DNA from: Squalus acanthias
Taxonomy: Eukaryota
Length of the DNA stretch: 64,000 nucleotides
Direction of reading: 5' to 3'
Assembly: GCA_030390025.1 (NCBI GenBank)
Contig: CM059432.1
Span: forward strand, 56,112,001 to 56,176,000
A program made the position numbers and the translations under genes. Numbering within the stretch: the stretch's first letter is position 1; each line of letters begins with the position of its first letter. Below are positions 5,157-49,473 of the stretch, one piece after another. Below the pieces are notes generated by a model. The model had not been told where the DNA came from and did no database searches. It worked only from the letters and a program-made list of their open reading frames with translations.

Positions 5157-5366
5157 ATAAAAACAGAAAATGCTGGAAATACTCAGCAGGTCAGGCAGCA
5201 TCTGTGGAGAGAGAAACAGAGTTAACGTTTCAGGTCAATGACCCATCGACCTGAAACATTAACTCTGTTTCTCTCTCCACAGATGCTGCCTGACCTGCTG
5301 AGTATTTCCAGCATTTTCTGTTTTTATTTCAGATTTCCAGCATCCGCAGTATTTTGGTTTTGTATT
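5157..5366. mobile_element. Penelope-like element remnant (inverted terminal-repeat palindrome)
   Basis: 84-bp inverted arms 5157-5240/5244-5327; 11-bp TSD AAGGTAGCTAC at 5146-5156 and 5367-5377; same family as 20437-20539. Confidence 0.8.
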
Positions 5367-5564
5367 AAGGTAGCTACGTAGTTAGCTGATCTCAGCCAGG
5401 GCAACAGTAAGAGTACAGCAATTGAACGAGGCCTATTGTTACTGGAGGGTGGAGGAGTGTAAAAATTGCCCTGGTTGCTGCTCCTTATCACTATCCGATG
5501 ACCCCTATTAGAAAGTGAACATGTGTGTAAACATCAGCCCAGCTATGATGTCTCCTTATTATTG

Positions 5565-5753
5565 CACAACACCAGGTTATAGTCCAACAGTTTTATTTGA
5601 AATCACAAGCTTTCGGAGCGGCTGCTCCTTCGTCAGGTGAAAGGAGCAGCCGCTCCAAAAGCTTGTGATTTCAAATAAAACTGTTGGACTATAACCTGGT
5701 GTTGTGCGACTTCTCACTTTTGTCCACCCCAGTCCAACACCGGCATCTCCGCA
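5565..5753. mobile_element. Second Penelope-like remnant (different family), palindromic
   Basis: 67-bp inverted arms 5564-5630/5641-5707; 12-bp TSD TCCTTATTATTG at 5553-5564 and 5754-5765. Confidence 0.8.
5603..5640 (-). ncRNA. Minimal type I hammerhead ribozyme motif
   Basis: Minus strand UCAC-CUGACGA-A-GGAGC(AGCC)GCUCC-GAAA-GC-UU-GUGA: stem I, core, 5-bp stem II, palindromic AGCU in place of stem III. Confidence 0.75.
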
Positions 5754-19795: not shown

Positions 19796-20088
19796 CTAGC
19801 TGATACTATCAGCCTCATTTGTCAGGATTTCTGCAAGTTCAGTTAAACCAGCATCAATCAGTACAGACAAAAAATTCTCCACTGTAGCTTGCGGTCCCTC
19901 CCGATCATGCCAAGCAACCAGCAGCAGCTTAGCACGCATCTTCACATCCTCACTATCGGATTCAATTCCACGGATGTCAGACTCCTTCATTTCAAAGTGT
20001 GGTGCCAATACTTTCCACTGTTCTCCAAGCTTGTTGGCAAGTATATCTATCTGTTCACCTGTTACAAGCTTAGTCTGCACGTCAGGAC
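19796..20088 (-). CDS. THOC1: THOC1 terminal coding exon (death domain)
   Basis: Acceptor AG (CT at 20089-20090); (S)PDVQTKLVTGEQIDILANKLGEQWKVLAPHFEMKESDIRGIESDSEDVKMRAKLLLVAWHDREG...ADSIS*, matching the THOC1/p84N5 C-terminal death domain. Confidence 0.97.
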
Positions 20089-20436
20089 CTAAAAATAATA
20101 AAACAAATTAAATGTCACTTTCAGACATTCAATACCCAATTCATACCGTCAAGTTAAGCATTTATCAAGTATTGAGTAATAAGAACATAAGAAATAGGAG
20201 CAGGAGTAGGAAAAGTAGGGAACTTATAATGGGGAACAAAGAAATGTCAGACCAATTAAATACATATTTTGGTTCTGTCTTCACAAAGGAGGACACAAAT
20301 AACCTCCCAGAGATGTCGGGGAACATAGGGTCTGATGAAAGGGAGGAACTGAAAGAAATCAGTATTTGTAGGGAAATGGTGTTGGGGAAATTGAGGGGAT
20401 TGAAGGCCGATAAATCCCCAGGGCCTGATAATCTAC

Positions 20437-20539
20437 CAGTTCTGATGAAAGGTCATCGACCTGAAACGTTAACTCTCTTTCTCTCTCCACGGATGCTGCC
20501 TGGCCTGCTGAGTTTTTCCAGCGTTTTCTGTTGTTATTT
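20437..20539 (+). mobile_element. Penelope-like terminal fragment inserted in CR1
   Basis: 12-bp TSD CTGATAATCTAC at 20425-20436 and 20540-20551; homologous to 5244-5330. Confidence 0.85.
20438..20474 (+). ncRNA. Minimal type I hammerhead ribozyme motif
   Basis: AGUU-CUGAUGA-A-AGGUC(AUC)GACCU-GAAA-CG-UU-AACU: stem I, core, 5-bp stem II, palindromic ACGU. Confidence 0.75.
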
Positions 20540-22105
20540 CTGATAATCTACATCCTAGGGTACTTAAGGAAGTGGCCCTAGAAATAGTAGATGCATTGCT
20601 GATCATCTTCCAGATTCCATCGAATGTTGGAACAGTACCCATGGATTGGAGGGTAGCTAATGTTACCCCACTATTCAAAAAGGGTGGTAGAGAGAAAACG
20701 GGGAATTACAGACCGGTAAGCCTGACATCGGTAGTGGGGAAAATGCTAGAGTCCATTATAAAAGATATAATAGCTGAGCACTTGAAAAACAGTAACAGGA
20801 TCGGACAAAGTCAACATGGATTTACAAAAGGTAAATCATGCTTGACTAATCTACTGGAATTTTTTGAGGATGTAACTGGTAAAATAGATAAGGGAGAACC
20901 AGTGGATGTGGTGTATTTGGACTTCCAAAAGGCTTTTGATAAGGTCCCGCATAAGAGATTAGCGTGTAAAGTTAAGGCACACGGGATTGGGGGCAAGGTA
21001 TTGACTTGGATAGAGAACTGGTTGGCAGACAGAAAGCAAAGAGTTGCAATAAACGGGTCTTTTTCCGAGTGGCAGGCAGTGACTAGTGGGGTACCGCAGG
21101 GATCGGTCCTTGGACCCCAGCTATTCACAATATATATTAATGATCTAGACAAGGGAACTAGATGTAATATCTCCAAGTTTGCAGACGACACAAAACTGGG
21201 TGGGCGTGTATGCTGCGAGGAGGATGCCGAGAAACTCCAGGATGATTTGGACAGGTTGGGTGATTGGGCAGATGCAATATAACGTGGATAAATGCGAGGT
21301 TATCCACTTTGGTGTCAAAAACAGAAAGGCAGATTATTATCTGAATGGCAATAGATTGGGAGAAGGGGAAGTGCAACGAGACCTGGGTGTCCTTGTGCAC
21401 CAGTCGCTGAAGGTAAGCATGCAGGTGCAGCAGGCGGTTAAGAAGGCAAATGGTATGTTGGCCTTCATAGCGAGAGGGTTCGAGTACAGGAACAAGGATG
21501 TCTTGCTGCAGTTGTACAGGGCCTTGGTGAGACCACACCTTGAGTATTGTGTGCAGTTTTGGTCGCCTTATCTGAGGAAGGATGTTCTTGCCATGGAAGG
21601 AGTTCAGCGCAGATTCACAAGGCTGATACCTGGGATGGCAGGAATGACGTATGAAGAGAGATTGGGTCGATTGGGCTTATACTCGCTGGAGTTTAGAAGA
21701 ATGAGAGGGGATCTCATTGAAACTTATAAAATTCTGACAGGACAGGACAAACTAGATGCAGGAAGGATGTTCCCGATGGTCGGGGAGTCCAGAACCAGGG
21801 GTCACAGTCTAAGGATAAGGGGTAAGCCATTTAGGACAGAAATGAGGAGGAATTTCTTCACCCAGAGAGTGGTGAACCTGTGGAATTCTCTGCCACAGAA
21901 GGCAGTAGAGGCCAATTCATTAAATAGATTCAAGAAGGAGTTGGATATATTTCTTAAGGCTAAAGGGATCAAGGGATATGGGGAGAAAGCAGGGACAGGG
22001 TACTGAATTTGGATGATCAGCCATGATCGCATTGAATGGCGGAGCAGGCTAGAGGGGCCGAATGGCCTACTCCTGCTCCTATCTTCTATGATTCTATGAT
22101 TCTAT

Positions 22106-23705
22106 AATTGGCCCGTCGAGCCTGCTCCACCATTCAATAAGATCATGGCTGATCTTCTACCTCATCTCCACTTTCCTGCACTATCCCCATATCCCTTGAT
22201 TCCCTTAATATTCAAAAATCTATTGATCTCTGTCTTGAATATACTCAACGACTGAGCCTCCACAGCCCTCTGGGGTAGAGAATTCCAAAGATTCACTACC
22301 CTCAGTGAAGAAATTTCTCATCTCAGTCCTAAATAGCTGACCCCTTATTCTGAGACTGTGACCCCTGGTTCTCGACTCCCCAGCCAGGAGAAACATCCTC
22401 CCTGCATCTACCCTGTCAAGTCCTGTAAGAATTTTGTATGTTTCAATGAGATCACCTCTCATTCTTCTAAACTCTAGAAAATATAGGCCTCGTCTACTCA
22501 ATCTCTCCTCATAGGACAATCCCCCATCCCAGGAATCAGTCTGGTGAACCTTCGTTGCACTCCCTCTATGGCAAGTATATCCTTCCTTAGGTAAGGAGAC
22601 CAAAACTATACACAATACTCCAGGTGTGGTCTCACCAGGGCCCTATATAATTGCAGTCAGATGTCTTTACTCTTATACTCAAATCCTCTTGCAATAAAGG
22701 CCAACATACCATTTGCTTTCCTAATTGCTGGCTGTACCTACATGTTAACTTTCAGTGATTCATGTACAAGGACACCCAGGTCCCTCTGAACACCAACATT
22801 TCCCAATCTCTCACCATTTAAAAAATACTCTGCTTTTCTATTTTTCCTACCAAAGTGGATTACTTCACATTTTTCCACATTATATTCCATTTGCCATGTT
22901 CTTGCCCACTCACTTAGCCTGTCTATATCCTCTTGAAGCCTCCTTGCATCTTCCTCACAACTTACATTCCCACCCAGCTTTGTATCAGTAGCAAATTTGG
23001 ATAGATTACATTTGGTCCCCTCATCCAAATCATTGATGTAGATTGTGAATAGCTGAGGCCCAAGCACTGATCCTTGCGGTACCCCACTAGTTACAGCCTG
23101 CCAACCCGAAAATGACCTGTTTATTCCTACTCTCTGTTTTCTGTCCGTTAACCAATCCTCAATCCATGCTAGTATATTACCCCAATCCCATGAGCCCTAA
23201 TTTTGTTTAATAACCTCTTGTGTGGCACCTTATCGAATGACTTCTGAAAATCCAAATGCACCACATCCACTGGTTCCCCCTTATCTATTCTGCTAGTTAC
23301 AACCTCAAAAAACTCCAACAGATTTGTCAAACACGATTTACCTTTCATAAATCCATGTCGACTCTGCCCAATCCTATTATTATTTTCTAAGTGCCCTGTT
23401 ACCACGTCCTTAATAATAGATTCTAGCATTTTCCCTACTACTGATGTCAGGCTAGCTGGTCTGTAGTTCTCAGTTTTCTCTCTCCCTCCTTTCTTAAATA
23501 GTGGGGTTACATTTGCTACCTTCCAATCCGCGGGAACCGTTCTAGAATCTATGGAATTTTGGAAAATGACAACCAATGCATCCACTATCTCTATAGCCAC
23601 CTCTTTTAAAACCCTAGGATGTAGGCCATCAGGTCCAGGAGATTTCTTGGCTTTCAGTCCCATTAATTTCTCCAGTACTATTTTTTTTTACTAATACTAA
23701 TTTCT
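22106..23705 (-). mobile_element. CR1 LINE whose extreme 3' tail is displaced to 20181-20209
   Basis: RT motifs in ORFs 23169-23663 and 22738-23067; AAGAACATAAGAAATAGGAGCAGGAGTAGG at 20181 continues into TTGGCCCGTCGAGCCTGC at ~22108. Confidence 0.9.
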
Positions 23706-49285: not shown

Positions 49286-49473
49286 GAGTTATGTCTTTGG
49301 TATGTTGATTTTTCTATTGTTCTATACATGTGATCAATGCTTGATCTGATGAACCTAGAAGCATTTTCAAATCTACCACTAAACTTAATACAGTAATGGT
49401 CCATCCTTAACTGCAGACGTTAAGACTGTGTAACCTCAACTGAAATATACTCATTATTTTCAGACAACGTTAC

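Follow-up and report, generated by a model that had tools for sequence, protein, structure and literature searches.

The hammerhead motif at 20438..20474 (plus strand) of the window, the 64,000-nucleotide stretch of Squalus acanthias DNA analysed here, opens a 103-bp stub of a Penelope-like element (PLE) that is Neptune-type by its protein linker. The stub is probably a run-off copy made by reverse transcriptase (RT), primed about 100 nt into an uncut PLE transcript and ending at the RNA 5′ end, near the first base of the hammerhead. The motif is ordinary for its class, which has been published along with the insertion layout and the tail. Numbers that bear on the in vivo role of the PLE hammerhead are brought here: a young, intact and very high-copy family bounds cleaved RNA as at most a rare template, and the 5′ ends of copies pile up at the front edge of the motif in two families whose proteins are only 32% identical.

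The stub and its hammerhead

The insert (20437..20539, plus strand) holds the pseudo-LTR (pLTR) and ORF start of its parent and is flanked by a perfect 12-bp target-site duplication of CR1 sequence (left copy 20425..20436, right copy 20540..20551, both plus strand). Genome-wide, 12,731 uninterrupted CR1 sites (a pattern count) carry the 12-mer once, so the duplication is real. The motif, its predicted cut after 20470, the 103-bp insert and the duplication were thus all found as originally predicted. Below, positions are counted from C3 of the hammerhead core, at window 20442, as 0. The predicted cut then falls between +28 and +29, and the insert runs from −5 (or −6, by microhomology) to +97.

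The motif is a minimal type I hammerhead, in agreement with the consensus in the available part of the supplement to PMC4209133. It comprises a 4-bp helix I (20438-20441/20471-20474), the C3–A9 core (20442-20448), one extra A, a 5-bp helix II with a 3-nt loop (20450-20462), a G12–A15.1 box and a palindromic 15.2/16.2. The bare core pattern occurs eight times in the window against 6.1 expected, which is no excess over chance. When a descriptor required both helices, the window gave exactly two motifs, and 100 simulated windows matched to it in dinucleotide composition gave none. An Rfam search gave no match at the window motif (E ≤ 1), and the window copy has A10.1-U11.1 in place of the usual G10.1-C11.1 pair.

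Minimal hammerheads have been published from Penelope repeats, with inactive monomers and weak dimers (PMC4209133, in the part available). Those of metazoan PLEs described there share with the shark motif the core, the extra base after A9, the absence of helix III, the palindromic 15.2/16.2 and the short helix I, as well as a U-rich upstream flank, here seen in the parent; they also occur mostly solo or as opposite-strand pairs from truncated PLEs. The 5-bp helix II is listed as a difference, and the published consensus has G10.1-C11.1 (>80%, not universal), in contrast to the A-U or G-U of the shark family. A10.1-U11.1 has precedents in the D. willistoni and Latimeria(2) rows, and the rows consulted in that supplement include no cartilaginous fish. 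The original prediction had read the structure common to the two window motifs as conservation; conservation at the RNA level is supported, but the shared structure is the published minimal-hammerhead consensus and not a discovery.

Folding predictions assigned helix II a probability of 0.7–0.8, while helix I was weak (up to 0.3). A dimer with an intermolecular helix III can be drawn (−9.7 kcal/mol), although the predicted minimum is another fold (−19.3 kcal/mol). By analogy with the published monomers, a single copy of the motif is expected to be inactive.

The parent element and variation of the motif

The insert is identical (103/103) to both terminal repeats of an intact 3.2-kb element at locus L172 (G000:C6:47841501-47851500, minus strand). 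This element is a tandem, with two hammerheads 3.2 kb apart flanking a frame that stays open for 1004 codons (stop to stop). Read from its translation, the protein contains an RT, a CX4CXXC linker, a C-terminal GIY-YIG domain and a CCHH motif. In Pfam searches of the family protein, RVT_1 (E = 4e-5) and GIY-YIG (E = 4e-4) both scored just under the curated cut-offs. The predicted Penelope-like origin is borne out by this identity to an RT and GIY-YIG element, and the parent that was to be searched for is the L172 copy. The hammerhead sits in the pLTR of this PLE family, hereafter family 1.

Copies of family 1 are very numerous. Counted as exact sequence patterns, a 33-base stretch of the motif occurs 5,520 times in the genome and a 46-base stretch downstream of the cut 16,558 times. 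Longer copies extend upstream into the GIY-YIG and RT coding region, with 318 exact matches reaching the RT N-terminus, and lengths form a continuum up to the full coding element. Further near-intact copies, inverted or tandem, were found at L173 and L174, and five other long copies have 97.8–99.7% identity. L172 and L174 (G000:C6:161482001-161492000) both hold intact tandem elements with the 1004-codon frame and are apparently the active masters of the family. At L083-L085 (G000:C1 near 6.99-7.13 Mb), one truncated copy has been amplified at least five times within a host tandem repeat.

The parent frame runs through the motif. Its first codons lie at 20445..20539 (plus strand) in the stub, with one ATG in the ribozyme core, 26 nt before the cut, and a second, in-frame ATG at 20493 (+51). 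Since the intact copy at L174 has ACG in place of the core ATG, the ATG at +51 is judged from sequence to be the likelier translation start.

In its single ORF with RT, linker and C-terminal GIY-YIG with CCHH, its partial tandems, its inverted 5′-truncated copies and its tail, given as 30–40 bp in the published elements, family 1 resembles the Neptune-clade EN+ PLEs described in the available part of PMC8557442. A CX2-5CXXC linker with CCHH is there the mark of Neptune and Nematis, the Nematis linker being reduced. We therefore refer to the parent as Neptune-type by its CX4CXXC linker and CCHH, a clade label taken from motifs and not from a tree.

A second motif in the window (5603-5640) lies in a head-to-head stub (5564..5740), both arms of which start at the 5′ edge of the motif. 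It belongs to a second Neptune-type family (family 2; 44,150 exact anchor matches in the genome), whose protein is 32% identical to that of family 1 over 330 aa; the two motifs thus come from different families, as had been proposed. An older head-to-head inverted stub of family 1 is also present in the window (5157..5329), with both arms starting inside helix II (+9 and +12) and the tail on the right arm.

Variation within family 1 was surveyed in 127 motifs from a relaxed scan that allowed one mismatch and itself required most pairs. The first core box was exact in 109 and the extra A after A9 present in 126. At 10.1-11.1, A-U was found in 94, G-U in 32, A-A in one and G-C in none; A10.1-U11.1 is found in the youngest subfamilies and G-U in older ones. 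Recurrent variants fell at tolerant sites, namely N7, loop II, N17 and the A-U to G-U change at 10.1-11.1, and variation at N7, the loop, N17 and 10.1 was seen again in 89 copies aligned on a downstream anchor. Three of four such changes alter the encoded residue, and third codon positions in the core and stems are fixed. N17 is C in 8 of the 127 copies, so the predicted site is not fixed as UU. A U4-to-C core variant occurs in both families (6/127 and 7/90).

No recurrent two-sided compensatory change was seen within family 1. In family 2, helix I shows a compensatory change (C-G 65, U-A 16, U-G 9 of 90), G10.1-C11.1 is kept and loop II ranges from 3 to 9 nt. Conservation of the motif at the RNA level is supported by this change and by the placing of variants at tolerant sites. 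The 3′ flank of family 1 is, however, conserved as much as the core, in an alignment biased by its anchor. Scored along their length, two older copies had a motif 89–97% identical to the parent against 54–76% for the 3′ UTR, and a third had a decayed motif. The motif is probably kept by selection on the master elements.

Ends of copies and the proposed origin of the stub

The 3′ ends of 206 family 1 copies fall into two classes about 35 nt apart, with 120 at +88..+107, 84 at +123..+140 and two between; the window copy (+97) belongs to the main class. By analogy with other PLEs, these classes would be two RT start sites together with the PLE tail. In the Anolis carolinensis Poseidon element PAc (Frangieh et al. 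2024, PMC11167929, in the part available), two RT start sites likewise define the tail, uncut RNA is the main template and no RNA ends at the cut. The hammerhead of PAc also lies at the pLTR-ORF junction, with a cut 26 nt after an ATG; cleavage occurs only with protein and is not needed for insertion. The shark family differs from PAc in its Neptune-type linker, its target duplications of 8–17 bp and its 5′-end pile-up at the motif, of which the available part of PMC11167929 makes no mention.

The 5′ ends were mapped in 101 family 1 copies picked by the downstream anchor alone, or 97 after four satellite-borne duplicates were dropped. Thirty-one of the 97, the window copy among them, end at −10..+8. 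The end rate there is 0.022 per nt, compared with 0.001–0.002 upstream, 0.003 at +21..+36 and 0.001–0.005 elsewhere (ratio 11); arms of inverted pairs were counted separately, which leaves the rates sound and makes P values for the pile-up too small. Many of these ends directly adjoin the target duplication, so the pile-up is not an artefact of subfamily divergence. Family 2 gave a matching picture, with 32 of 100 ends at −10..+8 and a mode of eight copies at −7.

Sequences around the pile-up suggest a promoter. YYANWYY is the initiator consensus, and an initiator-like motif lies at 20436..20442 (plus strand); its A, the first base of helix I, is the putative RNA start of the parent. An A/T box lies near −34, about 30 nt above that base, in nearly all of 55 distinct upstream regions (judged by eye). 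In family 2, the −7 mode falls on the A of an initiator-like motif, and a TATA box some 31 nt above it, at about −38, recurs in most of the 30 upstream regions listed. A pile-up on an initiator-like motif some 30 nt below a TATA-like box makes run-off of the first 100–135 nt likely, and on these sequence features the RNA of the element likely begins at the front edge of the motif. In family 1, −5, −4 and −2 are about equally frequent as 5′ ends, and the −5/−6 ends, including that of the window copy, lie upstream of the proposed +1. A TATA box and initiator have been proposed in a rotifer pLTR (PMC3846280). The D. virilis promoter counts against this reading, being TATA-less and starting about 120 nt upstream of its motif (PMC2377424; PMC4209133, in the part available).

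The main rival is that RT, copying a long read-through RNA, stalls on or drops off the ribozyme where it is folded or bound by protein, which would make the stub an ordinary 5′-truncated 3′ end. The spread of ends over −10..+20, helix II included, is consistent with this, as are the predicted formation of helix II (probability 0.7–0.8) and the roughly 60% of copies that extend past the motif, which imply that long templates are used. A stall should occur at the 3′ foot of helix II (+21), however, where ends are rare. The modes instead precede every paired region (−7 in family 2) and shift with the initiator-like A from family to family, and the end rate in the sampled copies falls sharply upstream of −10. 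We regard stalling as unlikely, though still the strongest competitor of a run-off at the RNA 5′ end.

If that RNA end arose by splicing-related processing, an acceptor should lie just upstream of the motif, as in D. virilis, where an intron runs up to helix I. The sequence upstream of the family 1 motif can be read just as well as branch point, pyrimidine tract and acceptor: the tract and a near-invariant acceptor-like triplet at −5..−3 are seen in 55 upstream regions, and many ends fall at −2. The letters of the initiator-like motif in the parent likewise resemble a splice acceptor. The copies that begin at −2 have no upstream exon in common, however, and those at −5/−4 retain the would-be intron end. 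No GT..AG joint was found in contigs of four runs, which are guessed to be RNA and whose contigs show presence only. Family 2 has no acceptor-like sequence at the site and yet shows the same pile-up, and processing of this kind is improbable.

Genome-wide patterns requiring non-element letters just upstream counted 817 junctions at −4, the first base of helix I, against 37 at the cut (+29) and 23 at a control position (+27); the filters pass unequal shares (an estimated ~0.38 vs 0.19) and the −4 pattern admits more subfamilies, which brings the corrected ratio of −4 to cut to roughly tenfold or more. Of 30 junctions inspected at −4, 21 were plain and nine inverted. At +29, 15 of the 30 inspected were inverted and 5 were plain ends, the remaining 10 being small internal indels; 7 of 20 inspected at the control were plain. 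Plain ends at the cut are therefore in no excess over the control among these genome-wide junctions. Given 817 junctions at the first base of helix I against 37 at the cut, the template is mostly uncut RNA, and cleaved RNA is at most a rare one.

In 11 of the 15 inverted +29 junctions (L217, L219, L221-L223, L225, L230, L238, L239, L245 and L246), the two arms start exactly at the predicted cut and at the 5′ strand of helix I, respectively, with four complementary bases common to both. These may be cleavage fossils or joins through 4-base microhomology. A cap-derived G was considered at copies starting at −4, as 45 of the 100 listed rows have a G just before helix I (hand count). It was not taken as evidence: of ten such copies flanked by duplications, two have extra letters ending in G and eight are explained by microhomology.

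We propose that the run-off copy in the window arose as follows. The GIY-YIG nuclease would make a 12-nt staggered cut at the target. Target-primed RT would begin inside the uncut RNA, at a site about 100 or 135 nt from its start, here presumably the proximal of the two (by analogy to PMC11167929, in the part available), and run off at the 5′ end. That end would be set by a TATA/initiator promoter in the repeat, and the cDNA end would be joined through 0–3 nt of microhomology. For the hammerhead to cut, it would be predicted to need a dimer or the help of protein.

A broader reading, which we hold tentatively and at slightly less than even odds, makes the hammerhead a cap-proximal switch. In these vertebrate PLEs, the mRNA would start at the first bases of the ribozyme, and internal priming 100–135 nt downstream would yield dead solo stubs, about one-third of insertions; only tandem read-through would give full-length progeny. 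If the front edge is the RNA start, then promoter, ribozyme and internal priming are joined in one testable model, and insertion ends become a fossil map of transcription start. This scheme as a whole would also explain why PLEs require tandems and why minimal hammerheads occur solo by the thousands in animal genomes. The intact 3.2-kb tandem element could serve directly in assays of cleavage and RT. A literature search, with most subscription papers, Repbase and Dfam outside its coverage, found no description of a shark or Neptune hammerhead or of 5′ ends that lie at the motif.

The very large number of copies, their fairly even size class of 100/135 bp and their target duplications could suggest a retrozyme-like or SINE-like mini-element, able to cleave itself, form circles and spread as one unit, or to act on THOC1. 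This is highly improbable given lengths that continue up to the full coding element, a stub without the upstream box, tandems limited to 3.2-kb and partial ones among the loci examined, ends that do not lie at the cut and a motif antisense to THOC1. Metazoan non-LTR retrozymes (bioRxiv 10.64898/2026.07.22.740005, in the part available) likewise carry a type I hammerhead from a PLE pLTR. They are non-coding tandem arrays with a hammerhead in each unit, whereas the shark stub has a single motif and a coding PLE as its parent; the retrozyme-like element suggested earlier is thus not indicated.

Genomic setting of the window copy

The insert lies in an intron of THOC1, upstream of the death-domain exon (19796..20107, minus strand); other THOC1 exons lie further upstream, near 49467 and 55350 of the window. 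THOC1 is on the minus strand and the motif is antisense to it, so the orientation of the motif was correctly predicted. The position is incidental, however: the THOC1 pre-mRNA cannot fold the motif because it carries the reverse complement, and the window motif has no bearing on THOC1. With its upstream promoter box lost, alone as a copy and antisense to THOC1, the stub is most likely inert.

The host of the insert is a 5′-truncated CR1-like LINE with an RT domain (20184..22010, approximate boundaries, plus strand), which is interrupted by the insert and has a split reading frame. It has 92–97.5% identity to 10 other copies and is only moderately young. The original prediction of recent movement holds, though a young CR1 host is not the best ground for it; with CR1 at 92–97.5%, recency rests mainly on the 103/103 identity to the parent and the 5,520 exact copies.

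A target preference for the window CR1 site was considered and discarded, as no other of the 206 copies lies there. The homologous CR1 stretch holds 9 of the 206 against a background of 11%, and CR1 as a whole is not a preferred target. Within ~20 bp of one CR1 position, ~950–970 bases downstream of the window insertion point, lie four family 1 insertions that arose independently (L001, L004, L047 and L131). The THOC1 intron also holds a 76%-identical inverted repeat, made up of two CR1 copies that meet at their tails (window 20540-23632).
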